A stretch of DNA of 64,000 nucleotides from contig DASYZR010000153.1 in assembly GCA_035945995.1 (NCBI GenBank), positions 22,330 to 86,329 on the forward strand, written 5' to 3'. Each line of letters opens with the position of its first letter. Position 1 is the stretch's first letter. Positions 9,123-42,805 of the stretch are shown here, piece after piece. The stretch is from a bacterium. Lineage in GTDB: Bacteria; Sysuimicrobiota; Sysuimicrobiia; Sysuimicrobiales; Segetimicrobiaceae. The notes under the pieces are model-generated. The model saw only the letters and a list, made by a program, of their open reading frames with translations, had not been told where the DNA came from and did no database searches. The position numbers and the translations under genes were made by a program.

Positions 9123-9242
9123 CCGCGAGGACTCCCGCTCCACCAAGATAGGAATGGGAAAGCGTTCTCACCGCGCGCGCGCTCGCCCTGCCGGGCGCGG
9201 GAGAGGGCCCGCCGCGGCGCGGGCCGAAGTAGTCGGCCTTCG

Positions 9243-12361: not shown

Positions 12362-13329
12362 TGCGGGAGCCACAGTTCGGGGTCGCGCTGGAGAACTTCT
12401 GTCCCGCGCCCGGCGCTCCCAGCGTCGACGGGATCCTCGCCTACGCGGCGCACGCCGAATCACTCGGCTTCACCTCCGTGTGGGCGTGGGACCACATCCT
12501 GCTCGGCACCAAGCGGCCGGTCCCGTTTCTCGAGTCGCTCGCGACCCTCACCGCGGTCGCGGCGACGACGAGGCGGATCCAGCTGGGCATCGGGGTGCTC
12601 GTGTTGCCGCTGCGCAACCCCGTGGTCCTCGCGAAGGAACTGGCGAGCCTCGACCAGATCTCCAAGGGACGTCTGGTGCTCGGGCTCGCGGCCGGCTGGT
12701 ACGAGCGGGAGTTCCAGGCGTGCGGCATCTCGTTCGCGGACCGCGGCAAGACGTTCGTGCGCAATCTCGAGGTCCTGCGGCGGCTGTGGACCGAGGAGCA
12801 GGTCGACGGCGCGATCGGTGACTACGTCTTCAAGCGCGCCGCGATGTTGCCGAAGCCGGTCCAGCGGCCGCACCCGCCCATGCTGATCGGCGGCTACGTC
12901 GACCGGGTCCTCCGCCGCGTCGCCCGGCACGGCGACGGTTGGCTGACATACTTCTACACGCCGGCGAGCTTTCGTACCGCGTGGGCCAAGATCCGGGCGT
13001 TCGCCGAGGAGCTGGGGCGCGATCCGGCGGAACTGCGGACCGTAAGCCAGCTGCCCATCTGCGTGGCACCGTCGTTCGAGGAGGCCGACCGGCGCGTCCG
13101 GGACTTCATCGCCCGGTACTTCGACGTCGCGCCGTGGAGCGAGTCGACCCCGGACAGCGCCGTCCGGGGAACGCCGGCGCAGTGCGCCGAGCAGCTCGCC
13201 GCGCACCTCGAGGCCGGCGTCGAGCACGTCGTCCTCATCCCGTGCGACTACCGGACGGAGCAGCTCGACGTGATCGCGCGCGAGGTCGTGCCGCGCCTGC
13301 GGCCGGGTGCGAGGCCGGTGCATGCCTGA
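12361..13329 (+). CDS. Luciferase-like monooxygenase (LLM) family oxidoreductase, possibly F420-dependent
   Basis: 322 aa, MREPQFGVALENF...LGIGVLVLPLRNPVVLAKELASLD...LVLGLAAGW. AAGGAGG RBS 7 nt upstream. TGATG overlap with the CoxL stop. The first ~324 codons of track ORF 11389..13329 are artefactual. Confidence 0.8.
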   Translation: MREPQFGVALENFCPAPGAPSVDGILAYAAHAESLGFTSVWAWDHILLGTKRPVPFLESLATLTAVAATTRRIQLGIGVLVLPLRNPVVLAKELASLDQISKGRLVLGLAAGWYEREFQACGISFADRGKTFVRNLEVLRRLWTEEQVDGAIGDYVFKRAAMLPKPVQRPHPPMLIGGYVDRVLRRVARHGDGWLTYFYTPASFRTAWAKIRAFAEELGRDPAELRTVSQLPICVAPSFEEADRRVRDFIARYFDVAPWSESTPDSAVRGTPAQCAEQLAAHLEAGVEHVVLIPCDYRTEQLDVIAREVVPRLRPGARPVHA

Positions 13330-15103: not shown

Positions 15104-16069
15104 TTACCAGCGGGCGAGGCGCGTGATCGCTTCGAAGATGCGGTCGACGCTCGGCAGATAGGCCGTCTCGAGCGGCGGCGCGTACGGCACCGGCGTATCG
15201 GGCGCGCCGATGCGTGAGATCGGAGCGTCGAGCGACGTGAACAGATGCTCGCCGAGATAGGCGGCGATCTCCGCGCCGATCCCGCCCCGCAGCCGGTCCT
15301 CGTGAACGATGAGCACGCGGCTCGTCCGCCCGACGGACTCGGCGATCGTCTCGAGGTCGAGCGGCAGGAGCGTCCGCAGGTCGATCACCTCCGCCGCGAT
15401 GCCGTCCGCGGCGGCCCGCTCCGCGGCCTCGAGGCTCCGGTGCGCCATCATCCCGTAGGTCAGGAGCGTGAGATGCCGGCCGGGCCGGCGCACCGCGGCG
15501 CGGCCGAGGGGCTCGATCATCAGGCCGTCCTCGACGGGTCCGCGCTGCGACCGATACAGCGCCTTGTGCTCCAGGTACAGGACGGGGTTCGGATCGCCGA
15601 TCGCCCCGAGCAGGAGGCCCTTCGCGTCGGCGGGCGTCGACGGCATCACGATTTTGAGCCCCGGCGTGTGAAAAAAGTAGCCTTCGATCGACTGCGAGTG
15701 AAACGGGCCGCCGTGGGTGCCGGCTCCGCACGGCGCCCGCACGACCATCGGCACGCAGCCGCCCGCCCGGTAGGCGGACGTGGCGGCCACGTTGACCATC
15801 TGAGTGAATGCGTTCGAGATGAAGTCCGCGAACTGCATCTCGACGACGGGACGCAGGCCGACGAGCGCCGCGCCGACCGCCGCGCCCACGATGGCCGCCT
15901 CGCTGATCGGCGTGTCGATCACGCGGGACGGTCCGAACTCCTCGAGGAACCCCTTGCTCAGCTTGAACGCGCCCCCGTAGACGCCGACGTCCTCGCCGAA
16001 GAGAATCACGGAGGAGTCCGCGCGCATCGCGCGGCGCAGCCCGTCCGCGATCGCCTCGAGGTACGTCAT
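15104..16069 (-). CDS. Thiamine-diphosphate-dependent dehydrogenase E1 component, beta subunit (acetoin / pyruvate / 2-oxoisovalerate dehydrogenase type)
   Basis: MTYLEAIADGL...VILFGEDVG.YGGAFKLSKGF...VIDTPISE (transketolase-like pyrimidine-binding and C-terminal domains). TAATG overlap with E1 alpha. Confidence 0.8.
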   Translation of the reverse strand: MTYLEAIADGLRRAMRADSSVILFGEDVGVYGGAFKLSKGFLEEFGPSRVIDTPISEAAIVGAAVGAALVGLRPVVEMQFADFISNAFTQMVNVAATSAYRAGGCVPMVVRAPCGAGTHGGPFHSQSIEGYFFHTPGLKIVMPSTPADAKGLLLGAIGDPNPVLYLEHKALYRSQRGPVEDGLMIEPLGRAAVRRPGRHLTLLTYGMMAHRSLEAAERAAADGIAAEVIDLRTLLPLDLETIAESVGRTSRVLIVHEDRLRGGIGAEIAAYLGEHLFTSLDAPISRIGAPDTPVPYAPPLETAYLPSVDRIFEAITRLARW

Positions 16070-17085
16070 TACGGCCACGGCGTGCCCTCGCAGTACACGC
16101 CGTGCTCGAGCTCCGCTGGGTCGGGCGGCGGGCTCGCCTCCGCCCAGGCCTGCGCCTCGTCCACCTCCGCGAGCGCCTGGGCGCGCAGTTCCTCGAGTCG
16201 CGCCGCGGTGGCCGCGCCGGCGTCGACGAGATACCGGGCGAACCGCTCGACGGGGTCGCGACGGCGGCCCTCTTCGATCATCGGGCGCGGCACGTACGAG
16301 GCGTCGTCGGCTTCGGAATGCCCCCGCACCCGCATCGTGCGCCCCTCGATGAACGACGGCCCGCCCCCGGTTCGGGCGCGGTCCACCGCCTCGCGCGCGG
16401 CGCGGTACACCGCCAGCGCGTCGTTGCCGTCGATCGAGCACGCGTGCATGCCGTAACCGGCCATCCGGACGTCGAGCGGTCCGACGACCTCGCGCGCAAG
16501 CGGCGTGGAGAGCGCGAACTGGTTATTCCAGCAGACGAGCACCAGCGGCAGCCGCAGCACGGCCGCGAGGTTCGCCGCCTCGTGGAACTCGCCCGTCGCG
16601 AGCGTCCCCTCGCCGAAGAACGCCATCGCGACGCGCGGCTCCGTGCGGACGGTGAAGCCGAGCGCGGCGCCGGCGGCGATGGGCACGTTGCCGCCGACGA
16701 AGTCGGTGTGGAGCAGGATGCGCGGCCCGAGGCCGCCGATGTGCAGGTTGCCCTCGCGGCCGCGCGTCGGCGAGCCCGTCCGTCCGAGAAAATTGGCGAA
16801 GTAGTAGCCGAGCGGCATCCCCAGCACGAGCCGCGCGCCGAGATCGCGGTGCAGCGTGGCCGCGACGTCGTGCGGCCCCAGCGCCGCGGCGCCGCCGACC
16901 GCGATCGCCTCGTGCCCCCAGCCGGTAAAGCAGGCGCCGACGATCTGGCCCGTCTGATAGAGCTTCACGACCCGCTCCTCGGCGAGCCGCTGGAGCATCA
17001 TGTAGTAGCAGAGGCGCTCGAGGTCCGCCGGTACGAGATCGGGCGTGATCGCCGCGGGTGGCTCCGCGCGTGTGTCGTCGGTCAT
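16069..17085 (-). CDS. Thiamine-diphosphate-dependent dehydrogenase E1 component, alpha subunit
   Basis: TPP-binding GDG...NN-type region (FFGEGTLATGEFHEAANLAAVLRLPLVLVCWNNQFA); 338 aa. Confidence 0.8.
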   Translation of the reverse strand: MTDDTRAEPPAAITPDLVPADLERLCYYMMLQRLAEERVVKLYQTGQIVGACFTGWGHEAIAVGGAAALGPHDVAATLHRDLGARLVLGMPLGYYFANFLGRTGSPTRGREGNLHIGGLGPRILLHTDFVGGNVPIAAGAALGFTVRTEPRVAMAFFGEGTLATGEFHEAANLAAVLRLPLVLVCWNNQFALSTPLAREVVGPLDVRMAGYGMHACSIDGNDALAVYRAAREAVDRARTGGGPSFIEGRTMRVRGHSEADDASYVPRPMIEEGRRRDPVERFARYLVDAGAATAARLEELRAQALAEVDEAQAWAEASPPPDPAELEHGVYCEGTPWP

Positions 17086-17137: not shown

Positions 17138-18007
17138 CTAGCGCAGCTCGGGAATCACGTCAGTCGCGACCCGCTCAAGGACCGCGAACTGCTCGGGGCG
17201 CGGCTGATCGATGATGAACTCGTTGATCCCGACCGCGCTGTACAGGCCAACGATCTCTTGGAACGCGGACGCGCTCGACCACGGATCGGGCAGTCGCTGA
17301 CTCGCCATCTGACTCGCCCATCCGTAAAACGACCGCCAGATCGTCTGGGGATCCCGCCCGATTGCCGCGCACTGCTCGTCCAGAATCCGGTTGCGCTCAC
17401 GAATCTCCTCCACGGTGCCGAACGAGTTCCAGGCGTCTGCGTACTCGGCACAGATCCGAAGCATTCGCGGTCCGTGGGCCCCGAGCGTGAGCGGCGGGCG
17501 TGGCTTCTGCACCGGCCGCGGCCGCACATAGGCTCCCTGAAGCTGATAGTACTTGCCGGCGAAGCGCGTAGTCTCGTTGCGCAAGAGGCTGTCGAGGACC
17601 TGTACCGCTTCGCGGAAGCGAACGACCAGCTCGCCGCTCGGCGGAAAGGGAATGCCGAAGCGCTCATGCTCGGGGACGAACCACCCGGCCCCGAAGCCTA
17701 GCTCGAGGCGGCCGTTCGAAATGTGGTCGACAGTGACCGCCTCTTGGGCGAGTAGGCCGGGGTGGCGGAACGTATTGCAGCTCACTAGGACGCCGACGCG
17801 GATCCGCTCCGTGCGCGCCGCGAGGGCGGCAAGCAGCGTCCATCCCTCGTAGTACGGTCCTGTTGGGTTGCTCGGCTGGTTCAGGTGGTCGCAGTCCCAG
17901 ATGCTGTCGAAGCCGAGGCGCTCGAAGTACTGCCACCGTTCGACGAGCGTGGGCCAAGGCAGGTTCTGATCCGTGCAGATGCCAAAGCGCATCCCGCGGC
18001 GGGCCAT
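17138..18007 (-). CDS. Luciferase-like monooxygenase (LLM) family oxidoreductase, second copy
   Basis: MRFGICTDQ...ELGFGAGW...; GGAGG RBS 5 nt upstream of the ATG at 18007. Confidence 0.75.
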   Translation of the reverse strand: MARRGMRFGICTDQNLPWPTLVERWQYFERLGFDSIWDCDHLNQPSNPTGPYYEGWTLLAALAARTERIRVGVLVSCNTFRHPGLLAQEAVTVDHISNGRLELGFGAGWFVPEHERFGIPFPPSGELVVRFREAVQVLDSLLRNETTRFAGKYYQLQGAYVRPRPVQKPRPPLTLGAHGPRMLRICAEYADAWNSFGTVEEIRERNRILDEQCAAIGRDPQTIWRSFYGWASQMASQRLPDPWSSASAFQEIVGLYSAVGINEFIIDQPRPEQFAVLERVATDVIPELR

Positions 18008-18069: not shown

Positions 18070-18912
18070 CTAGCGTCCGGCCGATTCGGGCGAACGCAAT
18101 CCGTGCCCGCCCCGATAGTCGACGGGCGGACGCGGCGCCCAGCCTTCGAGCAGCCGCGGCGCGGGCCGGAACACCTCCACCGCGAGCGGCCGGCAGGTGG
18201 ACAGCGGGTCCCCGCGGTGCGGGCCCATGATCGGCGCCGAGAGATCGCCGCCGGGGCAGGTCGAGAGCGCGCAGAGCAGGTCCATCTCCGCGAAAAACTC
18301 GAGGTAGTCGCCCTTCTTCGCCGGGCATGCCTTCGCGAAGTACCGCCCGTCCTTGCGCAGACCGGTCACCATGAACACGTTGAGGACGTCGTGGACGTCC
18401 AGTTCGGTGAGATGATACGGCGCGACGGCGCGCGTGAGGTTGGAGTGGCACGAAAAATCGAAGTCGTCGCCGTTCAGCATCTTATACACGTACGGATCGC
18501 ACCGTGTCCCCAACAGGTCGTGGCAGCCGGCCCCGTCCTCGTCGACCCGGTAGTTGACCGTGTCCGCGGTGATCGTCAGCATCGGCCGCAGGTACGGCAG
18601 GCACGACCACAGTCGGTCGAAGGCCGTCACATGCGTGCCGTGCAGCTGGCGGGTGCGCGAGGCCCAGAAACGCTCGCGGGGATTGTGCCGGTTCCAGGCG
18701 TTGAAGTCGCCGACCTGCGGGCCGTCGACGGTGATCATGCGGCACAGGTGCCCCGCCGGGACCGTCCAAGCCCGGCCGGACCGGATCGGGATGACGAACC
18801 GTTCGGTGAGCGTCCGCCCTTCCACGTCCTGGGCGAGCCGGCCGTAGAACGCCTTGTCGACCTCGAGCGGCGTCCCGGGGCCGTGATCGTACAGCGCGGG
18901 CGGTTCTGCCAC
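18070..18912 (-). CDS. DUF1989 (urea-carboxylase-associated / carboxyguanidine-deiminase CgdA/B-like) family protein, copy 1
   Basis: 280 aa. ...FNAWNRHNPRERFWASRT...GDYLEFFAEMDLLCALSTCP is the hallmark DUF1989 motif. GTG start with GGAGGTG 4 nt upstream. The track ORF 18070..19434 extends into livF. Confidence 0.75.
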   Translation of the reverse strand: MAEPPALYDHGPGTPLEVDKAFYGRLAQDVEGRTLTERFVIPIRSGRAWTVPAGHLCRMITVDGPQVGDFNAWNRHNPRERFWASRTRQLHGTHVTAFDRLWSCLPYLRPMLTITADTVNYRVDEDGAGCHDLLGTRCDPYVYKMLNGDDFDFSCHSNLTRAVAPYHLTELDVHDVLNVFMVTGLRKDGRYFAKACPAKKGDYLEFFAEMDLLCALSTCPGGDLSAPIMGPHRGDPLSTCRPLAVEVFRPAPRLLEGWAPRPPVDYRGGHGLRSPESAGR

Positions 18913-18935
18913 GTGCCACCTCCACGAAAACTCGT

Positions 18936-18951
18936 CAGGCGCCGGCGCCTG
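18936..18951. promoter_or_regulatory. Perfect 16-bp GC-rich palindrome CAGGCGCCGGCGCCTG in the livF / DUF1989 intercistronic gap
   Basis: Seen directly in the sequence. Could be an intra-operon stem-loop or a protein-binding site. Confidence 0.3.
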
Positions 18952-18971
18952 TTGATCCACCGCTTCCCGGA

Positions 18972-19694
18972 TCACGGGCGGGGGCGCGCCCCGATGCCCA
19001 GGTAGGCGCGCCGGACCGCCTCGTTCCGCGCCAGCTCGGCGGCGGGCCCCTCGAGCGCGATGCGGCCGTTCTCCAGGACGTAGGCGCGGTGCGCCAGGCG
19101 CAGCGCGGCGCTGGCGTTCTGCTCGACGAGAAGGACCGTCGTCCCCTCCCGATTGATCTCCGAGATCTTCTGAAAGATCAGATGGACCAGCACGGGCGCG
19201 AGGCCCATCGAGGGTTCGTCGAGCAGAAGCAGCCGCGGCCTCGTCATGAGCGCGCGCGCCATGGCCAGCATCTGCTGTTCGCCCCCCGATAGCGTGCCCG
19301 CCAGCTGCCCGCGCCGCTCCGCGAGACGGGGAAACAACGCAAAGACGCGGTCGAGGGCGCCCCGCGGCAGGCGCCGCTCGATGTAGGCGCCGAGCCGAAG
19401 ATTCTCCTCGACCGTCATCAGCGTGAAGATCCACCGTCCTTCCGGGACCTGCGTCAGGCCCAGGCCGACGATCTCATGCGCCGGCCGGGTGTCGATCCGC
19501 TCTCCGGCGAAGTGCACCTCGCCGGACCGCGGCCGCAGGAGGCCGGAGATCGTGCGCAGCGCGGTCGTCTTGCCGGCGCCGTTGGCGCCCAGGAGCGCGA
19601 CGATCTCCCCCTCGTCGACGTGAAAGGACGGCCCGTGCAGCGCCTCGATGCTGCCGTACGCGGTGACGACGTCGCGCACCTCGAGGAGACTCAC
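18972..19694 (-). CDS. livF: Branched-chain amino acid ABC transporter ATP-binding protein (LivF-type)
   Basis: Walker A GANGAGKTT; signature LSGGEQQM; Walker B LLLLDEPS; 240 aa. Confidence 0.85.
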   Translation of the reverse strand: MSLLEVRDVVTAYGSIEALHGPSFHVDEGEIVALLGANGAGKTTALRTISGLLRPRSGEVHFAGERIDTRPAHEIVGLGLTQVPEGRWIFTLMTVEENLRLGAYIERRLPRGALDRVFALFPRLAERRGQLAGTLSGGEQQMLAMARALMTRPRLLLLDEPSMGLAPVLVHLIFQKISEINREGTTVLLVEQNASAALRLAHRAYVLENGRIALEGPAAELARNEAVRRAYLGIGARPRP

Positions 19695-20545
19695 TCCGCG
19701 TCCTCCCGGCCGAGGTAGGCCTCGATCACCTTGGGATCGCGCTGGATCTCGTCCGGAACGCCCTCGGCGATCTGGACGCCGTGGTCCAGCACGATGATCC
19801 GGTCGCTGATCCCCATGACGACGCTCATGTCGTGCTCGATCAGCAGCACCGTGACGCCGGAGTCGCGGATCCGGGCGACGAGCTGCACGAGCCCGGCTTT
19901 TTCCGCGGGGTTCATGCCGCTCGCCGGTTCGTCGAGGATCAAGAGGCGCGGACCGGTCGCAAGCGCCCGGGCGATCTCGAGGCGCCGCTGGTTGCCGTAG
20001 GCCAGCTCACGCGCCTGCCGGCGCGCATGACCCTCCAGTCCAACGAACGCCAGGCCCTGGCGCGTCTCCTCGCGGACCCACGCCTCCTCCCGCCGGTGCA
20101 GGGGCGTGTGCAGCAGCGAGTCGAGGGTGCCCGCGCGGATCCGGCCGTGGAGGCCGATCATCACGTTCTCATCCACGCCGAGATCGGGAAACAGGCGGAT
20201 CATCTGGAAGGTGCGCGCGATCCCGTGCCTGACCACGAGATCGGGACGCAGCCCCGTGAGGTTCTTCCCCTCGAAGGTGATCCGGCCCGAGGTGGGGCGC
20301 AGAAATCCGGTGATGCAGTTGAACACGGTCGTCTTCCCGGCGCCGTTGGGACCGATGATGCTCAGGATCTCCCGGGACCGGACGGTCAACGACACATCGC
20401 TCACGGCGACCAGGCCGCCGAAGCGCATCGTGAGGTGCTCGACGTCCAGAACGGCGCCGGTCTCCAGGGCCGGCGGCTGGTCCGCCGGCTGTGATTTCAT
20501 CGTGGCCGGCGGCTGGTCCGCCGGCGGGGGAAACGCGGCGGTCAT
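19691..20545 (-). CDS. livG: Branched-chain amino acid ABC transporter ATP-binding protein (LivG-type)
   Basis: GPNGAGKTT; YGNQRRLEIARAL; LLILDEPASG. ATGA overlap with the livM stop. The N-terminus contains an ADQPPA tandem repeat; the alternative start is M at 20500. Confidence 0.8.
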   Translation of the reverse strand: MTAAFPPPADQPPATMKSQPADQPPALETGAVLDVEHLTMRFGGLVAVSDVSLTVRSREILSIIGPNGAGKTTVFNCITGFLRPTSGRITFEGKNLTGLRPDLVVRHGIARTFQMIRLFPDLGVDENVMIGLHGRIRAGTLDSLLHTPLHRREEAWVREETRQGLAFVGLEGHARRQARELAYGNQRRLEIARALATGPRLLILDEPASGMNPAEKAGLVQLVARIRDSGVTVLLIEHDMSVVMGISDRIIVLDHGVQIAEGVPDEIQRDPKVIEAYLGREDAE

Positions 20546-21578
20546 GACGGGGCTCCCGACGCCGCCGAATCGGCCGCAGACGCGCCGCCCGCGGAGACCC
20601 CGGCCGCGGCCTCCGCCTCCGAGCGCTCGACGGCCAGTTGCTCGATGCGGCCGTAGCGGCTGGGCCACAGTCCCTGCGGCCGCAGCAGCATCATGACGAT
20701 GAGGCCGATTCCGAACGCGAGCATCCGGACCTGATCGAACGCGCGGAGCACCTCGGGCAGGATGATGATGACGGCGGCGCCCAGGATCACGCCCGGCAGG
20801 CTCCCCCGGCCGCCCAGAATGATGACCATGAGGATGGTCACGGATTGAATGAACGTGAAGCTCGACGGGTTGATCGCCGTGAGCTTCGCCGCAAAGAACG
20901 AGCCGGCCGCGCCGGCGAAGATGGCCCCCAGGACGTAGGCCAGCAACTTGAAGTACACGGTATTGATGCCGGCCGCCTGGGCGGCGGCCTCGTCCTCCCG
21001 GATGGCGAGCCAGGCGCGTCCCAGCCGCGACGTGGAAAGATTATAACTACCGATGAGGACGACGAGCGCGAACGCCATCCCGAGAAAGTACAGCGCCTGC
21101 GGCGACCGCACGACGAGCGCGCCGATCTTCGCGTGGGGAATGCCGTAAATGCCCTCCGGCCCGCCGGTAAACGTGAGATTCGTGGCGGCGATGCGGACGA
21201 TCTCGCCGAAACCCAGCGTGACGATCGCCAGATAGTCGCTGCGCATCCTGAGCGTGGGCGCGCCGATGATGACGCCGGAGACGGCGGTGAAGCAGGCGGC
21301 GATCGGGAGCGTGAGCCAGAACGACATGTGCGTGTTGACCATGAAGTATGCCGTCGTGTAGGCGCCGATCGCGAAGAACGCCGCGTAGCCGAGGTCCAGC
21401 AGGCCGGCAAACCCGACCACGACGTTGAGGCCGAGGCCGAGCATCACGTAGACGAGGACGAGCGTCCCGACGTCGATCAGATAAGGCGTGCCGAACACGG
21501 GTAGTGCGATCGCCGCCAGGACGGCCGCTCCGGTCAGCGCGGTCTGATACAGGGGGCGCGACGGATCGGGGCGGAGGT

Positions 21579-21582
<4 letters not shown>
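20542..21582 (-). CDS. livM: Branched-chain amino acid ABC transporter permease (LivM-type)
   Basis: 346 aa polytopic membrane protein; C-terminal low-complexity tail (EAEAAAGVSAGGASAADSAASGAPS). Confidence 0.8.
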
Positions 21583-22478
<896 letters not shown>

Positions 22479-22567
22479 AGACCTAGGACGGTGGTCCCGC
22501 GTCCCGCGGGACAGGGGCAGTCGGGGCCGCCTCTCGCAAGAGACGGCCCCGCGACGCTACGAAGACC

Positions 22568-23692
22568 TCACATTCCGGTGGGCACGAACTTGTCGCCCTT
22601 GATAATGTACGTGATGTAGAGCACGCTCGTCCGGTCGCCCTTCTTGTCGAAGGCGATCTTCCCCGTGGCGCCTTGATAGGCCGTGGTGGCCGCGAGGGCC
22701 TTGATGATGGACGCGCGGTTCGCACTCTTGGCCCGCTGCATCGCGTTGATCACCACGCCCACGGCATCGTACTCGAGCGCCGAGTACGGGCCCGGATCCG
22801 CCTTCCACCGCTTCGTGTAGCGGGCGATGAACGACTTGGCCGTTGACTGGTCCTGCGGCAGCGGGGTCGACGTGATGTAGACTCCCGTGGATGCTGGGCC
22901 GGCCTCCTTGATGAACGTGGGGTCGTTGTTCGCGTCGCCGGCCATGAACTTCCCGGAGACGCCCAGATCCTTGAACTGCTTGGCGACCAGGCCGCCTTCG
23001 GGGTAGTACCCGGTGAAGTACGTGACGTCGGGGTTGAGGCTCTTCACCTTGGTCAGCGCGGCCGAGAAGTCCTTTTCACCCGGCGTGATCGCGTCGAAGA
23101 AGACGACCTGCACGCCCGACATCTTCTTGAGGGCGTCCTGGGTAGCCGTGGCCAAGCCCTTGGCGTAGAGCGTGTTGTCGTGGATGATCGCGATCTTCTT
23201 CGCGTGAAGCTCCTTCGTCATGAAGCCGGCGGCGTAGGGACCCTGCTGGTCGTCACGGCCGATGACCCGGAACACGTTCTCGAACCCCTGGTCGGTGAGC
23301 TTGGGGTTGCTGGACGCGTCCGCCACGAACGCGACCCCCGCGTCGTGATACACGGCGCTCGCCGGAATCGCCGCCGACGAGCAGTAGCCGCCGGCCACCG
23401 CGACCACGCCGGCATCGATCAGTTTGTGCGCGGCCGTCACGGCCTGCTGCGCGTCGCAGGCGTCGTCGAACGACACGATCTCGAGCTTCCGCCCGAGGAC
23501 GCCGCCCTTGGCATTCTGTTCATCCGCGGCCATCGTCGCCGCCTGCACGATATCGCTGCCCATCTTGGCGTTGCCGCCCGAGAGCGGAACCGGCACCCCG
23601 ATCTTGATCGTCGCGGCCTGCGCGCCGACGCCGGAAACCGTGACGGACAGCAGCAGCGCAAGCATCGCCGCCGCCGCAAGAACGCTCCGCAT
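22568..23692 (-). CDS. livK: Leu/Ile/Val-binding-family periplasmic substrate-binding protein (LivK-like) with signal peptide
   Basis: MRSVLAAAAMLALLLSVTVSGVGAQA signal peptide; IKIGVPVPLSGGNAKMG. GGAGGGGGTGGGGG lies immediately upstream. The track ORF has a 154-codon artefactual N-terminal extension. Confidence 0.8.
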   Translation of the reverse strand: MRSVLAAAAMLALLLSVTVSGVGAQAATIKIGVPVPLSGGNAKMGSDIVQAATMAADEQNAKGGVLGRKLEIVSFDDACDAQQAVTAAHKLIDAGVVAVAGGYCSSAAIPASAVYHDAGVAFVADASSNPKLTDQGFENVFRVIGRDDQQGPYAAGFMTKELHAKKIAIIHDNTLYAKGLATATQDALKKMSGVQVVFFDAITPGEKDFSAALTKVKSLNPDVTYFTGYYPEGGLVAKQFKDLGVSGKFMAGDANNDPTFIKEAGPASTGVYITSTPLPQDQSTAKSFIARYTKRWKADPGPYSALEYDAVGVVINAMQRAKSANRASIIKALAATTAYQGATGKIAFDKKGDRTSVLYITYIIKGDKFVPTGM

Positions 23693-23833
23693 CCCCCACC
23701 CCCTCCGCGGTCGGGCGCGTGACCCCTGCTTGGGGGCGCCCGTCGCTACGTGCCCGCGGCCCTTCTCAGAAGAAGGTGGCAAATCCTTCCCGCCAGAACA
23801 GCCGCGTGGAGACGCATCTGCGGAGGTGGCGCG

Positions 23834-24502
23834 GTGGAGCATCCCGGGATCACGCCGTCGTTGATCGCCTTTGAGGAAACGATTCCGCCCCGCGGGGGCA
23901 CGGCGTTTCCGATCAAGGCCGGGCAGGTGTGCCGCGTCGTGGACCTCGAGGGGAAGCAGGTGGCGGACTTCATCTGCTTCAACCTCCACGATTTCGCCGA
24001 CAAGCTCTCCCCCGAGAACACGCAGTTGCTCAACGGCACCCTGTTCCTCACGACGGGCCACCACCTGTACTCCACGAAGGCGACGCGGCTCATGACGATC
24101 ACGGCCGACACCTGCGGCGTCCACGACCTGATCAGCGGATCCTGCAGCGAGCAAACAAACGCGTTCCGCTACGGGGTGCGCGGCACGCCCAACTGCCGCA
24201 GCAACTTCGAGCGGGTGCTCAAGCCCTACGGGATTCCGCCGGCCGAAATCCCCTACTCCTTCAACGTCTTCATGAACACCCCGATCTCGGCCGAAGGGCG
24301 GACCGGCATCCAGGAGCCGGAATCGAAGCCCGGGGACTACCTCGACGTGCGCGCCAACGTCGATCTGCTCATCGCGATCTCAAACTGCCCGCAGGAGCGG
24401 AACCCCTGCAACGCCTTCAACCCCACGCAGCTCGGGGTCGTGGTGTACGAGGTGGAACCGACCGGCAAGGGCGCGGCCATCCAGGCGCCCGGCGTGGGCT
24501 AG
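23834..24502 (+). CDS. DUF1989 (CgdA/B-like) family protein, copy 2, divergent from the liv operon
   Basis: 222 aa. AFPIKAGQVCRVVDLEGKQVADF...GDYLDVRANVDLLIAISNCPQ. GTG start with GGAGGTG 5 nt upstream. Confidence 0.7.
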   Translation: MEHPGITPSLIAFEETIPPRGGTAFPIKAGQVCRVVDLEGKQVADFICFNLHDFADKLSPENTQLLNGTLFLTTGHHLYSTKATRLMTITADTCGVHDLISGSCSEQTNAFRYGVRGTPNCRSNFERVLKPYGIPPAEIPYSFNVFMNTPISAEGRTGIQEPESKPGDYLDVRANVDLLIAISNCPQERNPCNAFNPTQLGVVVYEVEPTGKGAAIQAPGVG

Positions 24503-25794
24503 AACGCGGCGCCGTTGACCGGCTCCACCCGGGGGACCGGCGCGAACGTCCGGGGCGACAGCCCCTCGAGATCGTGCGCCGGCGCGCGGCCCGCGACGAG
24601 ATCGGCGACGATCCGGGCCGAGCCGCATGCCATCGTCCACCCCAAGTGCCCGTGGCCCGAGTTGAAGAAGAGGTTGCGGTGGCGGCCCGCTCCGAGCACC
24701 GGCGGACCGCCCGGCGTCATCGGCCGCAGGCAGGCGCGGTACTCCCCGCGCGTGTAGTCGGCGGCGTCGGGAAACAGATCGCGCGCCAGCCGTTGGATGT
24801 TCGCAAAGTTCCGCGGGCTCCAGCTCCAGTCGTACCCGGCGAATTCGGCGGTGGACGTCAGCCGCAGCCGGTCGCCCATCCGGGACCACGCCACGAGCCA
24901 GCGTTCGTCGACACCCGGGACGCTGGGCGCAAGCCCGCCCGGCCGCAGGGGAAAGGTCGATGAGTACCCCTTGGCGGGATAGATCGGCAGCCGTGCGCCC
25001 ACCGTGCGGGCGATGATGGGACTCGAGACGCCGAGCGCCAGCACGTAGGCATCGGCGGCCAACACGCCGCGGTCGGTCAGGACACCGGAGATGCGATCCC
25101 CGCCGGCGCGCAACGCTCGCACGCGGGTGCCGAGCCGGAACGTCACGCCGAGCTTCTCGCGGCACACGCGTCCCAACTCTTCCGTGAACAACCGGGAGTC
25201 GCCGCTCGAGTCGGTCAGGTCGAGCACGGCGCCGGCGATCTTGTGCCTGACCGGCTCGAAGACCGGATCGAGCTTCGCCACCGCGTCGGGGTCGAGCACT
25301 TCCTGCCGCTGCCCGTGCTCGGCCAGAAGGCGCATCTTCTTCACGCCGGCCTCGAGTTCGGCCGCGTCGCGGCAGAGGTACAAGGCCCCGCGGGCAATCG
25401 CGTGGTAGGCAATCCCCTCCCGGCGCACGAGCTCGGCCATCACCGCCTGGCTGTACTGGCACAGCCTCAGCTTCACGAGCGTGTTGCGGCGCGCGCGGCC
25501 GGCCGTGCATTCGCGGAGGAAGCGCAGGCCCCAGGAGTACAGCCGGGGATCGGGCCGCAGCCTCACGCGGATCGCGGTTTGCTGTCCGAGAAGCGACCGG
25601 AGCAGCATGGCCGGCGCCCCCGGAGACGCCCAGGCAAATGCGTGGCCCGCCGCGACGATGCCCGCGTTGCCGCCGCTGGCTTCCTGCCCGACCCCGTCCC
25701 GCTGCTCGACCAGGACCACCTCGCATCCGTCCTGCGCGAGGTAGTACGCCGTCGCCACGCCGATGACGCCGCCGCCGAGGACAAGGACCTTCAT
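24499..25794 (-). CDS. dadA: FAD-dependent D-amino acid dehydrogenase (DadA-like)
   Basis: MKVLVLGGGVIGVATAYYLA (FAD dinucleotide-binding fold)...PIYPAKGYS...NSGHGHLGWTMACGSA. ATGA overlap with the upstream CoxL gene. The 738-aa track ORF is a spurious extension. Confidence 0.8.
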   Translation of the reverse strand: MKVLVLGGGVIGVATAYYLAQDGCEVVLVEQRDGVGQEASGGNAGIVAAGHAFAWASPGAPAMLLRSLLGQQTAIRVRLRPDPRLYSWGLRFLRECTAGRARRNTLVKLRLCQYSQAVMAELVRREGIAYHAIARGALYLCRDAAELEAGVKKMRLLAEHGQRQEVLDPDAVAKLDPVFEPVRHKIAGAVLDLTDSSGDSRLFTEELGRVCREKLGVTFRLGTRVRALRAGGDRISGVLTDRGVLAADAYVLALGVSSPIIARTVGARLPIYPAKGYSSTFPLRPGGLAPSVPGVDERWLVAWSRMGDRLRLTSTAEFAGYDWSWSPRNFANIQRLARDLFPDAADYTRGEYRACLRPMTPGGPPVLGAGRHRNLFFNSGHGHLGWTMACGSARIVADLVAGRAPAHDLEGLSPRTFAPVPRVEPVNGAAF

Positions 25795-28118
25795 TCGCGC
25801 CCGCGGACGGGCCGCTCGCCGCGCGCCAGCGCCTGCGCCACCCGCTCCGGCGTGATCGGGAGCTCGGTAATGCGCACCCCCACCGCGTCTTCGATCGCGT
25901 TCGCAATCGCCGCGGCCGGCGGCCCGATCGGCGGCTCGCCGATGCCCCGCGCCCCAAACGGCCCCCGGCCGTCTCCCGATTCGAGCACGATCGGTTCGAC
26001 GTCCGGGACGTCGAGCGAGGTCGGGATCAGGTAGCCGGCAAAATTGGTGGACAGGTTGACGCCCCGATCGACCACGACTTCCTCCATCAGCGCGTACCCC
26101 AGCCCCATCACGGCGCCGCCTTGAATCTGCCCCTCGACGCTTTGGGGGTTGACGGCGCGACCGACGTCGTGGCACGCCGCGTGCCGGACGACGGCGACGG
26201 CGCCGGTCTCCGTGTCCACCTCCACGTCGACCGCGTGGGCCCCGAAGGTGAAGTCGGGGAAGATCCGGCCGCCGCCGCGCTCGAGATCGACCGGGTCGCC
26301 GGCCGGGGCGTGATACACGCCCAGGTGGCTCCGTGCGACCCCGCGGCGCGCGCATTCCCGCACCACCTCGGCCAGCGGGACGCGCCGGCCGCCGGACTCG
26401 GCGGCGCCGCCGTCGCGAAGGTCGACCCGGTCGGACGGCGTCTCGAGCATCTGCGCGGCCACCGGCAGGATCTGCCTCCGCAGCTCGGTGGCCGCTTGGA
26501 GCACGGCGTTGCCCGACATGTAGAGCTGGCGCGTGGCCGTCGTCGTGCCGGCGAGCGGCGTCAGCGCGCTGTCGCCGACGTGCACGGACACCGCGTCGGG
26601 CTCGACCCCGAGGATCTCGGCGGCGATCTGGCACAGGGAGGACGCCTGACCGCCGCCGACGTCGGGGACGCCCGTCCGGACGACCACGCTCCCGTCCATC
26701 TCGAACCCGACCCACGCGCTCGCCCAGTCGTGCAGCCAGACGATGCGGCCGTAGGGCTGGATGTTGCAGGCCAGGCCGCGGCCGGCGCGATGGGATGGCG
26801 TTCGAGGGGCGCGGCGCGGACCGAGCGCCGCCCAGGCGCGCTGCGCCGCCTCCGCCACCGCGACGTGCGTGTCCAGTTCCTGGCCGATCGGAAGCCGGTC
26901 GCCCTTGCGGAGCGCGTTCTGCACGCGCACCGCGACGGGGTCCAGTCCCAGGCGCCGCGCCAGCCGGTCCATCTGCGACTCGTAGCCGAACACCATCTGC
27001 ATGGCCCCGAATCCCCGCATCGCGCTCGTCGGCGGGTTGTTCGTGTATGCGGCGCGCGCGTCCACCGCGACGTTGGGCACCCGATAGGGCCCGGCGGCGG
27101 TGACGGTCGCGTACATCAGCACGAGGGCGCTGAGGTAGGCGTAGGCGCCCGAGTCGGCCAGGAGATCCACCGCCTGCGCCAGGAGCGTGCCGTCGCGCGA
27201 CGCCCCGGTGCGATAGTGCAGCACAAACGGATGACGCTTGGGACGGGCGAGGAGCGACTCCTGACGCGACCAGACCATCCGCACCGGCCGGCCCGTCCGG
27301 CGGGCGAGGAGACCGAGGAACACCTCGACGGTCACGTCTTCCTTACCGCCGAAGCCGCCCCCCACGTACGTGCCGATCACCCGCACTTTGTTGTGGGGAA
27401 GGGCGAGCGCCTCCGCGACGTCTCGAAAGTGCTCGATCACCTGGGTGGAGACCCGAATCACCAGTACACCGTCGGTGTCCACCCACGCGACCCCCGCCTC
27501 GGGCTCGAGGTAGGCGTGGTCGATGAACTGGCAGCGGTAGGTATGCTCCACCACCACGTCGGCCTCGGCGAGCGCCCGCTCGACGTCTCCGCATCCCGCG
27601 TGCCAGCGCGCCAGGAGGTTGCCCTCCTCGTGCACCTGGGGCGCGCCGGGACGCAGCGCGTCGGCCGAGTCGAACACGCCCGGCTGGACCTCGTAGTCGA
27701 CGTCGATCGCTTCGAGCGCCCGCCGCACCGTCTCGGGCGTCTCGGCCGCCACCAGGGCCACCGGCTCTCCCTGATATCGCACGACCCGCTCCGCGAGCAC
27801 CTGCAGCCGGGCCCGCAGGGCGCCGACCTCGCTGGTCTGACCGGGCACGTCCGTCCACAGGGTATTACGCGGCACGTCGTGGGCGGTCAGCACCGCGGCG
27901 ACGCCGGGCAGCGCGGCCGCGCGCGAGGTGTCGAGGCGGCGGATCCGGGCGGACGGGTACACGGAGCGCAGCACGCCGCCGTGCAGCATGCCCGGCATCT
28001 GCCAGTCGGCGGCGTACAGCGTCCGCGCCTGGACTTTGTCCCGGGCGTCGTGCCGCGCAATGGTCCGGCCGACGACGCGGAGGTGTGCGGCCGGCAGGAC
28101 CGCCGGGCCCTCAGCCAC
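25791..28118 (-). CDS. XDH/CoxL-family molybdopterin-binding large subunit, copy 2
   Basis: 775 aa; VGRTIARHDARDKVQARTLYAADW; GGGFGGKED; AMRGFGAMQ; GIGEPPIGPP. Confidence 0.85.
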   Translation of the reverse strand: MAEGPAVLPAAHLRVVGRTIARHDARDKVQARTLYAADWQMPGMLHGGVLRSVYPSARIRRLDTSRAAALPGVAAVLTAHDVPRNTLWTDVPGQTSEVGALRARLQVLAERVVRYQGEPVALVAAETPETVRRALEAIDVDYEVQPGVFDSADALRPGAPQVHEEGNLLARWHAGCGDVERALAEADVVVEHTYRCQFIDHAYLEPEAGVAWVDTDGVLVIRVSTQVIEHFRDVAEALALPHNKVRVIGTYVGGGFGGKEDVTVEVFLGLLARRTGRPVRMVWSRQESLLARPKRHPFVLHYRTGASRDGTLLAQAVDLLADSGAYAYLSALVLMYATVTAAGPYRVPNVAVDARAAYTNNPPTSAMRGFGAMQMVFGYESQMDRLARRLGLDPVAVRVQNALRKGDRLPIGQELDTHVAVAEAAQRAWAALGPRRAPRTPSHRAGRGLACNIQPYGRIVWLHDWASAWVGFEMDGSVVVRTGVPDVGGGQASSLCQIAAEILGVEPDAVSVHVGDSALTPLAGTTTATRQLYMSGNAVLQAATELRRQILPVAAQMLETPSDRVDLRDGGAAESGGRRVPLAEVVRECARRGVARSHLGVYHAPAGDPVDLERGGGRIFPDFTFGAHAVDVEVDTETGAVAVVRHAACHDVGRAVNPQSVEGQIQGGAVMGLGYALMEEVVVDRGVNLSTNFAGYLIPTSLDVPDVEPIVLESGDGRGPFGARGIGEPPIGPPAAAIANAIEDAVGVRITELPITPERVAQALARGERPVRGRE

Positions 28119-28593
28119 GGGACGCCGCCATCGTCCCGGCGGCGGCTTCGATCGCGTCCACGATCTTCGCGTAGCCCGTGCACCGGCACAGGTTGCCGGC
28201 GATGGCCCGGCGGATCTCCTGGCGCGTCGGCCGCCGGTGTTCCCGGAGGAACGCGTCCGCGGTCAGGATGATCCCCGGCGTGCAAAATCCGCACTGCGCC
28301 GCGCCGTGGGCGACGAACGCCTCCTGCAGCGGGTGCAGGCGCCCGGCGGGCGCGAGCCCGCGCAGCGTCGTCACGCTCTTGTCCGCGACGCGGGCGGCGA
28401 GCACCAGGCAGCTGCTCACCGGCTCCCCGTCCAGCAGCACGGTGCACGTGCCGCAGACGCCCTCGCCGCACCCTTCCTTGACTTCCATGGCGCCGAGATC
28501 GTCGCGCAGCACCTCGAGCAGCGTCTGGTGCGCGAGGACGCGCGCCTCGCGCCGGTCTCCATTCAGGGTGAAGGCGATCCTCAGCTCGGTCAC
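28111..28593 (-). CDS. [2Fe-2S]-binding small subunit (CoxS/XdhC-type)
   Basis: 160 aa; CGEGVCGTCTV (ferredoxin-like cluster) and CGFCTPG...CRCTGY (second cluster). GTGA overlap with the FAD-subunit stop. Confidence 0.85.
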   Translation of the reverse strand: MTELRIAFTLNGDRREARVLAHQTLLEVLRDDLGAMEVKEGCGEGVCGTCTVLLDGEPVSSCLVLAARVADKSVTTLRGLAPAGRLHPLQEAFVAHGAAQCGFCTPGIILTADAFLREHRRPTRQEIRRAIAGNLCRCTGYAKIVDAIEAAAGTMAASRG

Positions 28594-29471
28594 GGTCCCG
28601 CTCCCTTCGCCGCCTGCGCTGCCGCCCGCACGAGAGCCCGCCGGGCCATCACGCGGGTCAGGTGCCGGCGGTAGTCGGCCGACGCGTGCACGTCGCTCTC
28701 CGGCTCGATCTCCAGTGGATGATCCGTCACGGCGCGCCGGAACGTCTCCTCCGACGAGTCGGCCCCGGCCAGGGCGCGCTCCGCCGCGAGCAACCGCACC
28801 GGCGCCGGCCCGGCCCCGGCGATCGCCACGCGGGCGCGGGCCGTCTGTCCGCGGGCATCCAGCTCGACGACGGCGACCGCCGCGACAATGGCGAAGTCGC
28901 CGGCGCGCCGGGTGAATTCCTCCACGGCGTAGCCGGTCCGGCCGGCCGGCACGGGCAGCCGCACGGCGACCAGCAGCTCGTCGGCGCGAAGCGCGGTGGT
29001 GAGCAGGCCGGTGAAGAACTCCGCCGCCGGGATCTCGCGCCCGCCGCCGGGACCCCGGACGACGGCGATCCCGTCGAGCGCGCGCACGACCGCGGGCCAC
29101 TCCGCCGCGGGGTCGGCATGCGCCAGGCTGCCGCCGATCGTCCCCATCGTGCGCACCCGCACGTTGCCGATGAGCGCCGCCGCCTCCTGGAGCAGCGGGC
29201 ACTCCGCCAGCGGTCCGTCGCCGCGCTCGAGCGCCCGGTGGCGGACGAGCGCGCCGATCTCGAGCGTGTCGCCGTCCCGGCGCACGGCCCGCAACTCGTC
29301 GAGGCCGTAAATGTCCACGACCGCCCGCGGGCGCGCCAGGCGCAGCGTGAGCAGCGGCACGAGACTCTGTCCGCCGGCCAGCACCTTCGCCTCCTCGCCG
29401 AGGGATCCGAGGAGCGACAGCGCCTCGGCCAGCGTCGCCGGAACATGGTAGTCGAACGGCGCCGCCGGCAT
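28590..29471 (-). CDS. FAD-binding medium subunit (CoxM-type, molybdopterin dehydrogenase FAD-binding domain)
   Basis: 293 aa; MPAAPFDYHVPATLAEALSLL...KVLAGGQSLVPLL...TIGGSLAHADPAAE. Confidence 0.8.
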   Translation of the reverse strand: MPAAPFDYHVPATLAEALSLLGSLGEEAKVLAGGQSLVPLLTLRLARPRAVVDIYGLDELRAVRRDGDTLEIGALVRHRALERGDGPLAECPLLQEAAALIGNVRVRTMGTIGGSLAHADPAAEWPAVVRALDGIAVVRGPGGGREIPAAEFFTGLLTTALRADELLVAVRLPVPAGRTGYAVEEFTRRAGDFAIVAAVAVVELDARGQTARARVAIAGAGPAPVRLLAAERALAGADSSEETFRRAVTDHPLEIEPESDVHASADYRRHLTRVMARRALVRAAAQAAKGAGP

Positions 29472-29473
29472 CC

Positions 29474-30310
29474 CTAGACGTCCCAGCCGCCGTCGACGAC
29501 CAGATCGTGGCCGGTGATCTGCCGGCTTTCGTCCGAGGCGAGGAATACGACGGTGTGCGCGACGTCCGATTCGTCGGAGAACCGGCGCAGGGCCATCTCC
29601 CGGACGTACTCGTCGAAGACCGCCTCGGGCGTCGTGTCCCGCACCCGGGCCTTCTCCCCGATGATGGTCCGCATGCGCTCGCCCTCGACGACGCCGGGAC
29701 AGATCGCATTCACGTTCACGTTGTAGGGACCGGCCTCGAGGGCCAGCGTGCGGGTCAGTCCGCGGACCGCCCACTTCGACGCCGAATAGGCGGCGCGATT
29801 GCGATAGCCGCGCAGCCCCGAGGTCCCGGCGATGTTGACGATCTTGCCGTACCGCTGCTCCATCATCGTCGGGACGACGGCCCGGCAGCAGAGAAAGACG
29901 CCGCGAAGATTCACGGCCAGTACCTGGTCCCACTCCTCGGGCGCGATCTGGTACAGGGGCGTCTCAATCGGACCGATCACACCGGCCGCGTTCACCAGGA
30001 TGTCGATCCGGCCGAACTCAGCGCGCGCCCGGCGGGCGAGCGCCGACACCTGATCCTCCCGCGTCACGTCGGCGGGCACCGCGAGGTGGCGGTGGCCTGC
30101 CCCGCCTGCCTCGCCTGCCCCGCGCGAGACGGGGCGTGAGCCGGGGCCCCCTTCCAGATGCTCGAGCCGCTCGACCAGCGCCGCGAGCGGGCCGGCCTCG
30201 CGCGCGGCCGCGACGACATGCGCCCCCTCGCCGGCGAGCGCGGCGCAGATCGCGTCGCCCATACCCTTGGCGGCACCGGTGACGATCGCTACCCGATCCG
30301 CAAGCCTCAC
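29474..30310 (-). CDS. Short-chain dehydrogenase/reductase (SDR) with an approximately 28-aa Gly/Ala/Pro-rich insertion
   Basis: VAIVTGAAKGMG...NAAG...YSASKWAV (YxxxK). An insertion LEHLEGGPGSRPVSRGAGEAGGAGHRHL follows the second beta strand. Confidence 0.75.
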   Translation of the reverse strand: MRLADRVAIVTGAAKGMGDAICAALAGEGAHVVAAAREAGPLAALVERLEHLEGGPGSRPVSRGAGEAGGAGHRHLAVPADVTREDQVSALARRARAEFGRIDILVNAAGVIGPIETPLYQIAPEEWDQVLAVNLRGVFLCCRAVVPTMMEQRYGKIVNIAGTSGLRGYRNRAAYSASKWAVRGLTRTLALEAGPYNVNVNAICPGVVEGERMRTIIGEKARVRDTTPEAVFDEYVREMALRRFSDESDVAHTVVFLASDESRQITGHDLVVDGGWDV

Positions 30311-31953: not shown

Positions 31954-32014
31954 CGGAGCGCCTCGCCTCCCACCGCCCTGCGATCGGGAGCCGCCGGGAT
32001 CCGCGGCGCGGCCG

Positions 32015-34081: not shown

Positions 34082-34086
34082 GGGGG

Positions 34087-37590: not shown

Positions 37591-37603
37591 CTGGGCGCGC
37601 TCA

Positions 37604-39768: not shown

Positions 39769-39808
39769 GACGTTTGCACCTCCGAGGTGAGGTTCCGGCC
39801 CGGCGGCG

Positions 39809-42800: not shown

Positions 42801-42805
42801 GCGGC

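Follow-up and report, generated by a model that had tools for sequence, protein, structure and literature searches.

Two catalytic-type DUF1989 proteins beside a Liv-type importer in a Segetimicrobiaceae genome: a candidate carboxylase-independent nitrogen-salvage module

What do two DUF1989 proteins do on either side of a Liv-type ATP-binding cassette (ABC) importer that has no carboxylase near it? The question is raised by a 64,000-nucleotide stretch (hereafter the window) of contig DASYZR010000153.1 from a member of the Segetimicrobiaceae, in which two DUF1989 paralogues, here termed DUF1989-A and DUF1989-B (A and B), bracket such an importer. To our knowledge, only two activities have been characterised in this large enzyme family, those of CgdAB and Tdm. 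CgdAB hydrolyses carboxyguanidine to allophanate and ammonia, and its genes (UAAP1 and UAAP2) are adjacent and co-directional beside a guanidine/urea carboxylase gene, usually with allophanate hydrolase; a guanidine riboswitch is common at such operons, albeit not universal. An earlier note on this DNA had suggested that A and B may be a split CgdA/CgdB-like pair. The answer that we tentatively prefer is a different one: the locus may represent a conserved carboxylase-independent catabolic module for an imported nitrogen compound of the alpha-amino-acid type, with A and B as independent Zn enzymes acting at different steps.

The bracketing itself is borne out by the open reading frames (ORFs) and by matches to Pfam PF09347, with one DUF1989 gene after livF and the other divergent from livK (Table 1). 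Since the window is ~70% G+C, genes were chosen by third-position GC together with domain matches. The five Liv-type genes between A and B share the minus strand and overlap or follow one another closely. Gene A lies 59 bp 3' of livF on the same strand, a coenzyme F420-type oxidoreductase of the luciferase-like monooxygenase (LLM) class follows 62 bp downstream of A, also on the same strand, and the E1 alpha and beta genes close the liv-A operon; no terminator-like site was found in the livF-A gap or in the A-LLM gap. Thus the LivJ/K-like binding protein, LivHMGF, A, the LLM oxidoreductase and E1 alpha/beta are encoded in one same-strand array. Gene B diverges from livK across a 141-bp spacer and stands 4.9 kb from A on the opposite strand. 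Its 3' end abuts that of a long operon on the minus strand, which encodes HyuA, HyuB, a short-chain dehydrogenase/reductase (SDR), three molybdenum (Mo) hydroxylase subunits and the D-amino-acid dehydrogenase DadA, whose start overlaps the stop of the hydroxylase large subunit (XDH-L).

To see how far this layout recurs, 80 A-type loci of species-representative genomes were compared. Exactly the same split order, with B divergent from livKHMGF and A after livF, and with proteins 79-89% identical, is carried by at least six further species-level metagenome-assembled genomes (MAGs), which are unclassified soil MAGs and "ANGP1" (loci L001/L002, L005, L006, L008, L010 and L012), and its repetition in all of these loci argues that the arrangement is not due to chance. 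The divergent B-livK junction is kept in seven of seven syntenic genomes, the genes on the far side of B being variable, and E1 alpha/beta are syntenic beside A in L001, L005-L008, L010, L012-L014 and L020. Within the divergent spacer, 141-338 nt long in the seven syntenic loci, the livK-proximal ~100 nt are partly conserved and the rest varies. A GGAGGATTTGC ... CGGAGAA stretch (~23770-23800, ~80-110 nt upstream of the livK start), partly conserved in all seven, could be an operator or an element of the 5' untranslated region.

A second DUF1989 gene is found almost only where A is linked to a Liv importer (15 of the 21 such loci versus 2 of the 59 others, both of these on truncated contigs; Fisher p=9e-10, a value overstated because the association spans about two independent lineages). 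Together with the conserved layout, this upholds the suspected link of the DUF1989 genes to the importer. Rokubacteria/Methylomirabilota and one Dormibacterota MAG have a divergent Liv importer, A, and then a second DUF1989 gene placed 5-45 bp or one small gene after A, whose product is of the 3ORU type and again catalytic-type. In most Dehalococcoidia A is solitary. De novo clustering of the neighbours in the 80 loci returned mostly generic partners (NAD-epimerase-like, LLM, SDR and GGT proteins) and no pathway.

Both window proteins belong to the DUF1989 superfamily by their PF09347 scores (191.5 bits, E=1e-56 for A; 184.8 bits, E=1e-54 for B; gathering cut-off 27), and they share 34% identity (E=1e-29). 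Cryo-electron microscopy of Tdm defines the active site of DUF1989 proteins as a three-Cys Zn centre (C285, C301, C365) with D220, F327 and D367 (PMC13619132). In our alignment of A, B, family members, canonical UAAP1 and UAAP2, 3DI4, 3ORU and the Tdm core, from which a neighbour-joining tree was also derived, the residues D220, H278-D279, C285, C301 and C365 (Tdm numbering) are present in A, B, UAAP2, 3DI4, 3ORU and the second copy of Rokubacteria; in A they are D69, H131-D132, C138, C155 and C219. By its match to PDB 3DI4 (E=5.6e-73 over residues 36-271 of 280) and by its clustering with 3DI4 and the A-family in the tree, A is assigned to the 3DI4-type subfamily. Members of this subfamily are set apart by residues inserted ahead of the His-Asp motif and by ~50 additional residues at the C-terminus, where a fourth Cys (C240) as well as Y266, H270 and G271 are invariant; B, UAAP1, UAAP2 and Tdm lack these features. 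On the same alignment B forms a clade of its own, nearest to UAAP2 (37-38% identity) and to the catalytic domain of Tdm (PDB 9Q59, E=1e-25, the best solved relative of B). Both subfamilies are abundant: at least 8000 matches were obtained for the A type, with at least 576 tblastn-confirmed relatives in species-representative genomes (576 of the first 600 pattern matches), and 953 for the relatives of B.

Could A and B nevertheless form a heteromer of the CgdA/CgdB kind from separated genes, with carboxyguanidine or a similar carboxylated guanidino or ureido compound as substrate and a hydantoinase-family enzyme in the place of the biotin carboxylase? Both are DUF1989 proteins, UAAP2 is the best NCBIfam match of B, A is repeatedly accompanied by a second DUF1989 protein, and HyuA/B genes lie near A in the window and in L001, L010, L013 and L085; the Hyu family is known to include acetone and acetophenone carboxylases. 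However, A (56.5 bits with UAAP2, 38.6 with UAAP1) and B (179.8 and 113.9 bits) all fall short of the equivalog cut-offs (284.7 bits for TIGR03424 UAAP2 and 205.95 bits for TIGR03425 UAAP1), and neither protein is of the degenerate UAAP1 type. The latter point emerged from a comparison with two canonical operons (L092 and L093), on a Pantoea vagans plasmid and on a Novosphingobium plasmid, in which a NitT/TauT-type ABC importer is followed by UAAP1, UAAP2 and urea/guanidine carboxylase, and then by allophanate hydrolase in Novosphingobium. In both, UAAP1 keeps the His-Asp motif and has S at D220, L/S at C285, G at C301 and L/C at C365. As UAAP2 retains all six residues and UAAP1 has lost the Asp and Zn-binding Cys, CgdAB is, judged by its sequences, a catalytic subunit (UAAP2) paired with a degenerate one (UAAP1), in line with the inactive cognate subunit remarked on in PMC11271267. 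Having two catalytic-type members, the A/B combination does not fit this architecture.

Both characterised DUF1989 systems unite a degenerate and a catalytic module, UAAP1 with UAAP2 in CgdAB and the N-terminal domain with the core in Tdm, the N-terminal DUF1989-like domain of the latter being devoid of the Cys residues (PMC12560246). The catalytic-type residues and mostly solitary occurrence of A, B and the 3ORU-type proteins, on the other hand, suggest that these are homo-oligomers. That A is solitary in the majority of genomes, and that the structure of 3DI4 is one of a single protein, also speaks against a split CgdAB pair. As for the premise of the earlier note that DUF1989 proteins normally occur in pairs beside a carboxylase, it holds for the two TIGR subfamilies only.

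The genome context is equally unlike that of CgdAB. The absence of a carboxylase from the window, already pointed out in the earlier note, is corroborated by tblastn with real urea/guanidine carboxylases, biotin carboxylase, PxpBC-like proteins, allophanate hydrolase and amidase, which found nothing at E<=1e-3, and by Pfam, which detects no such carboxylase, allophanate hydrolase or amidase either; the sole "carboxylase" domain in the window belongs to the AIRC/LarB-type protein of a larBCE-like cluster. Neither a urea nor a biotin carboxylase occurs at any of the 80 A-type loci (0/80). No guanidine riboswitch or any other Rfam element was detected in the whole window at the gathering threshold, or in 23500-24000 at E<=1. 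The two HyuA/B pairs and PxpA are present as had been reported, by both Pfam and NCBIfam, but the proposed role of the Hyu proteins as a substitute carboxylase finds no support: both pairs are nearest to caprolactamase alpha/beta (470/281 bits for the pair at 30307-34615 and 602/397 bits for that at 1894-5813, all below the cut-off of 1000) and score much lower, 124-325 bits against cut-offs of 1250-1500, with the acetophenone carboxylase subunits. Overall, A and B depart from CgdAB in score, in the pairing of subunits, in adjacency to a carboxylase and in the riboswitch; their genes are on different strands with 5 kb between them, the window encodes neither an allophanate hydrolase nor an amidase for the product, and they belong to separate subfamilies each found solitary elsewhere. 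We therefore regard a split CgdAB as very improbable.

The importer adds a further argument. Its binding protein aligns end to end with E. coli LivK (1USG, E=1.8e-65; LivJ 1Z15, E=1.6e-59) at 36% identity and reaches only 60 bits with the model of the urea-binding UrtA. Together with two BPD_transp_2 permeases and two ATPases, and with the backbone-contacting positions kept, it makes up an importer of the HAAT family. The protein retains C78, S79, A100, Y150, Y202 and Y276 of LivJ/K, with conservative T102S and E226D replacements; of these positions, S79, A100, T102, Y150, Y202 and E226 presumably hold the amino and carboxylate groups of the ligand. The side-chain pocket is altered (W/Y18M, L77Y, A101S and G227A), the window protein having M18, Y77, S101, S102, D226 and A227. 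These changes, T102S and E226D included, make Leu, Ile or Val improbable as the ligand. Taken together, the residues of the binding protein point to an alpha-amino-acid-type compound, and not to free guanidine or urea, so that the guanidino/ureido substrate suggested earlier is not supported by the LivJ/K-like protein with its conserved backbone-contact positions; the canonical CgdAB operons, moreover, use a NitT/TauT-type importer. The identical pocket signature is seen in every A-linked orthologue, including that of cultured Paraburkholderia.

Orthologues of A occur in Proteobacteria at 47-68% identity. In Paraburkholderia sprentiae a Liv-type importer, preceded by an Asp/Glu-racemase-family gene, is followed in turn by a ferritin-like gene, A (66%), an EF-G paralogue and DadA (50%). 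In Azospirillum A is followed by pyroglutamyl-peptidase I, in Shinella by an M24 peptidase and an amidohydrolase, and in Bradyrhizobium it is preceded by an Ehu-type importer and followed by an aminotransferase and a racemase-family gene. Klebsiella/Enterobacter plasmids carry an amino-acid ABC importer, GntR and A, with a lactam cluster of the PxpA / urea-amidolyase-family / biotin-carboxylase type nearby; in Sinorhizobium such a cluster lies directly 5' of A. In cultured bacteria overall, members of the A-family are accompanied by amino-acid ABC importers, Asp/Glu-racemase-family proteins, DadA, pyridoxal-phosphate (PLP) enzymes, pyroglutamyl peptidase, M14/M24 peptidases and PxpA. An ectoine-like or a 5-oxoproline-like substrate was considered in view of Ehu-type, racemase-family, M24, aspartoacylase-family, pyroglutamyl-peptidase and PxpA neighbours, and neither was adopted because these are generic family names occurring in different genomes. 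The Klebsiella/Enterobacter plasmids (the K. pneumoniae plasmid pKP0155-1, L094, and ~40 others) are clinical and IncF-type; their A-type protein is 60% identical to that of the window, and the lactam cluster is flanked by insertion sequence (IS) elements.

The neighbours of B tell another story, which brings in the main competitor of the single-module reading. According to it, two unrelated pathways stand side by side, A belonging to a Liv (+DadA) module and B to a separate Mo-hydroxylase/PxpA/CysK-like module for an N-heterocycle or a lactam, and the bracketing of the importer would be a by-product of the assembly of a catabolic island. In L001/L002 the genes B-PALP-LamB-XDH_L (for B, the CysK-like protein, PxpA and the hydroxylase large subunit) stand close together in one orientation, and orthologues of PALP and XDH_L stand at matching offsets beside B in L010 and L012; the CysK-like, PxpA and hydroxylase large-subunit genes, which form one operon with B in these relatives, are located at 8088-12361 in the window. 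In the absence of A, the B-type gene is found with XDH-family hydroxylase subunits, a flavoprotein and a Liv-type importer in Nocardioides sp. T5, with a Liv importer and a hydroxylase large subunit in Rokubacteria, and with hydroxylase subunits in L091, the linkage to XDH-family enzymes being seen in L086, L088 and L091. Conversely, Liv, A and DadA occur without B in Paraburkholderia, and Liv, A and E1 alpha/beta without B in L013 and L020. That the divergent spacer is conserved only in its livK-proximal part is also in keeping with two pathways. Against this stand the B-livK junction, kept in 7/7 syntenic genomes though the far side of B varies, and the recruitment of a different catalytic DUF1989 subfamily beside A at the Liv-linked loci of Rokubacteria, which would otherwise be an odd coincidence. 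On balance we consider two independent pathways unlikely, albeit a serious competitor.

Demethylation is another chemistry that could be envisaged, with one or both DUF1989 proteins acting like Tdm on an N-methylated or N-oxide amino-acid derivative and releasing formaldehyde. The catalytic domain of this trimethylamine N-oxide (TMAO) demethylase is the closest solved relative of B, a DAO-FAO_M-GCV_T protein of the sarcosine/dimethylglycine-dehydrogenase type directly follows A in L001/L002, a SolA-type N-methyl-amino-acid oxidase encoded in the window passes its cut-off (479 versus 257 bits), and E226D/G227A of the binding protein adjoin the position binding the amino group of the ligand. However, the substrate-contacting F327 and D367 of Tdm are not conserved (M/Q at F327 and G/H/Q/S at D367 across the alignment; M at F327 in both window proteins, with G in A and Q in B at D367), and the Tdm model NF053776, with its cut-off of 1100 bits, gives A only 43 and B only 121 bits. 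Neither protein carries a fused GCV_T/tetrahydrofolate (THF) domain, nor did Pfam show one in those window ORFs that were scanned with it. Tdm-like chemistry is thus improbable for either protein.

Returning to the single carboxylase-independent module, we infer its chemistry, substrate and quaternary state from the gene content, synteny and residues described above. A and B would each act as an enzyme of its own, a homo-oligomer and not a heteromer of catalytic and degenerate subunits. At its Zn site each would break a C-N bond, setting free ammonia or an amine, either by hydrolytic deimination/deamidation (as in CgdAB) or by lyase-type cleavage (as in Tdm). They would act on the imported compound or on one of its breakdown products, and the carbon skeleton would next be processed by DadA, E1 alpha/beta and other oxidoreductases. 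The divergent promoter region that A and B have in common, and the repeated recruitment of a second catalytic DUF1989 gene at Liv-linked A loci, suggest that the two act in one pathway, at different steps. In more general terms, it appears possible, if far from certain, that 3DI4-type (A) and B-type proteins work on their own as Zn(Cys)3 enzymes, that their activities differ from carboxyguanidine deimination and from TMAO demethylation, and that they operate in an undescribed nitrogen-salvage pathway of the Liv + A (+DadA) type; the C-N bond that they cleave would belong to an imported amino-acid derivative, possibly one that is D-configured, N-modified or cyclic.

Several observations weigh against this reading. 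The association with a second DUF1989 gene draws on few lineages, as stated above, and the pocket argument depends on the ligand-holding roles assigned to the LivJ/K residues. DadA lies near A in only 7 of the 80 loci, and the closest relatives have none within 10 kb. B is dispensable for the core function of Liv and A, as the Paraburkholderia module has no second DUF1989 gene within 9 kb and L013 and L020 have no B. Also, B-type genes occur without A beside a Liv importer of their own with a different pocket, position 226 of the binding protein being non-acidic in the B-module of Rokubacteria; such loci fit two separate pathways as well as one. A complete pathway is not reconstructable from the genes, the module reading does not explain what the LLM oxidoreductase and E1 alpha/beta contribute, and our literature searches found no functional data on either the A-type or the B-type subfamily.

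If A-type and B-type proteins do have such activities of their own, the Liv + A (+DadA) genes distributed from soil MAGs to Paraburkholderia would represent an undescribed nitrogen-salvage pathway. The gene families involved are already known and annotated, the 3DI4 type having a crystal structure without a function. The combination of two catalytic-type DUF1989 subfamilies with amino-acid importers, DadA, lactamases and Mo-hydroxylases in the absence of a carboxylase, on the other hand, is not described in the searchable literature. The tie of these two abundant subfamilies to such partners, and not to a carboxylase, also bears on annotation: names such as "urea carboxylase-associated protein" are spreading in databases to DUF1989 members that lack the defining features, a likely mis-annotation that the present comparison corrects. 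Orthologous modules in culturable hosts (Paraburkholderia, Azospirillum, Nocardioides) and on Klebsiella plasmids offer a tractable route to a new activity, and the binding protein of the importer can be used to look for the substrate. We see the locus as a solid lead for enzyme function discovery and not as a surprising biological principle.

Table 1. Features of the window discussed in the text (positions in the 64,000-nucleotide stretch)
Feature	Position	Strand	Remarks and evidence
Second HyuB/HyuA pair	1894-5813	+	Pfam, NCBIfam
CysK-like PLP enzyme	8088-9167	-	
PxpA (LamB/YcsF)	~9258-10025	+	NCBIfam 306 bits (cut-off 226)
Second Mo-hydroxylase large subunit	10007-12361	+	
E1 alpha; E1 beta	16069-17085; 15104-16069	-	Thiamine-diphosphate 2-oxoacid dehydrogenase components; Pfam E1_dh, Transket_pyr, Transketolase_C
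F420-dependent LLM-class oxidoreductase	17138-18007	-	Pfam Bac_luciferase; TIGR03560 228 bits, slightly below cut-off 231
DUF1989-A	18070-18912	-	280 aa; Pfam PF09347; PDB 3DI4 match; residue comparison; GTG start with GGAGG Shine-Dalgarno
livF-like ABC ATPase	18972-19694	-	Pfam ABC_tran and BCA_ABC_TP_C; NCBIfam LivF 264 bits (cut-off 441)
livG-like ABC ATPase	19691-20545	-	Start overlaps livM stop; Pfam, NCBIfam
livM-like permease	20542-21582	-	Pfam BPD_transp_2; NCBIfam LivM 301 bits
livH-like permease	21579-22478	-	Pfam BPD_transp_2; NCBIfam LivH 229 bits
livK, LivJ/K-like periplasmic binding protein	22568-23692	-	Signal peptide; PDB 1USG and 1Z15 matches; pocket comparison
Divergent control region livK / DUF1989-B	23693-23833	.	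141 bp; alignment of 7 syntenic loci
DUF1989-B	23834-24502	+	222 aa; Pfam PF09347; NCBIfam UAAP2 180 bits; PDB 9Q59; GTG start with GGAGG
DadA-type D-amino-acid dehydrogenase	24499-25794	-	Convergent with DUF1989-B; last gene of Hyu / Mo-hydroxylase operon; NCBIfam NF001933
XDH/CODH-family Mo-hydroxylase	25791-29483	-	Large subunit 25791-28118, 2Fe-2S ~28111-28600, FAD 28590-29483; Pfam
SDR	29474-30310	-	Pfam; upstream members HyuB and HyuA in same operon
HyuB and HyuA, ATP-dependent lactamase/hydantoinase-type pair	30307-34615	-	HyuB 30307 to ~32020, HyuA 32015 to ~34100; Pfam, NCBIfam

Among the neighbouring genes, the window DadA is a full-length member of its subfamily (NF001933, 402 bits against a cut-off of 383). 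It is 73-76% identical to the DadA proteins encoded 6-7 kb from A in Rokubacteria (L034, L064, L067, L082 and L084), and in the closest relatives that have no DadA within 10 kb of A (L001, L005 and L006) the hydroxylase large subunit directly abuts B; this distribution points to a local rearrangement or transfer. PxpA has no PxpB/PxpC partner in the window and is directly followed by a Mo-hydroxylase large subunit, the small and FAD subunit genes of which are not adjacent. F420-type LLM oxidoreductases are encoded twice (12400-13329, plus strand; 17138-18007, minus strand), one of them passing the TIGR03619 cut-off (213 versus 167 bits). The closest relatives of the source lineage are unclassified soil MAGs labelled 'bacterium', Bacillota or ANGP1, and from these relatives and the two oxidoreductases it is probable that the lineage uses coenzyme F420.

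Further along the window, a nickel-pincer-cofactor system occupies 36067-48265 on the minus strand. It comprises a LarA-like isomerase (37604-38998; 'NPN isomerase group 22', 500 bits against a cut-off of 400) and larBCE-like genes, LarC at 45290-46588, a LarB/AIRC-like gene at 46515-47408 and a LarE-like gene at 47354-48265 (minus strand), accompanied by a UxaE-like epimerase, KduI/IolB, an enolase-superfamily racemase and a sugar/polyamine-type ABC importer. The region looks like a cluster for the epimerisation of a sugar acid or hydroxy acid. Two very large ORFs lie at 55117-63999 on the minus strand in a part of lower G+C (63-65% versus ~70%); one encodes 1472 aa with beta-propeller-like and helix-hairpin-helix domains, and the other, which runs past the window end, more than 1125 aa with a Laminin_G_3 domain.

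How does the locus compare with known systems? It shares with the CgdAB operons the association of two paralogues of the same Pfam family (PF09347) with an ABC importer, and B has the SNCPQxxNPCN motif of UAAP2 as well as all catalytic residues. It differs from them in that the window has no degenerate UAAP1-type partner, guanidine/urea carboxylase, allophanate hydrolase or riboswitch, that A and B are neither adjacent nor co-directional, and that the importer is Liv-type (HAAT) instead of NitT/TauT-type. With Tdm (PDB 9Q59; NF053776) both proteins have in common the three-Cys Zn site, D220 and the His-Asp motif. However, A (280 aa) and B (222 aa) are single-domain proteins, without the N-terminal DUF1989-like and C-terminal GCV_T/THF domains of Tdm. 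The importer has the same five-component HAAT architecture as E. coli LivJ/LivK-LivHMGF, yet all of its components score below the E. coli equivalog cut-offs, which makes the binding protein a family member and not a LivJ/K equivalog.

A itself most resembles the structural-genomics protein 3DI4, with which it shares the insertion near the His-Asp motif, the C-terminal extension with its fourth Cys and all catalytic residues; as 3DI4 has no assigned function, this membership gives A a fold and a metal site but no activity, and the alphaproteobacterial branch of the 3DI4 family is only ~47-50% identical to A. The module of Paraburkholderia sprentiae WSM5005 (BJG93_RS30895-RS30930), itself uncharacterised, differs from the window by the lack of a second DUF1989 gene within 9 kb and by the racemase-family, ferritin-like and EF-G paralogue genes standing in place of the LLM oxidoreductase and E1 alpha/beta. 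What it has in common with the window is a binding protein (58% identity) with the same pocket signature, together with A (66%) and DadA (50%).

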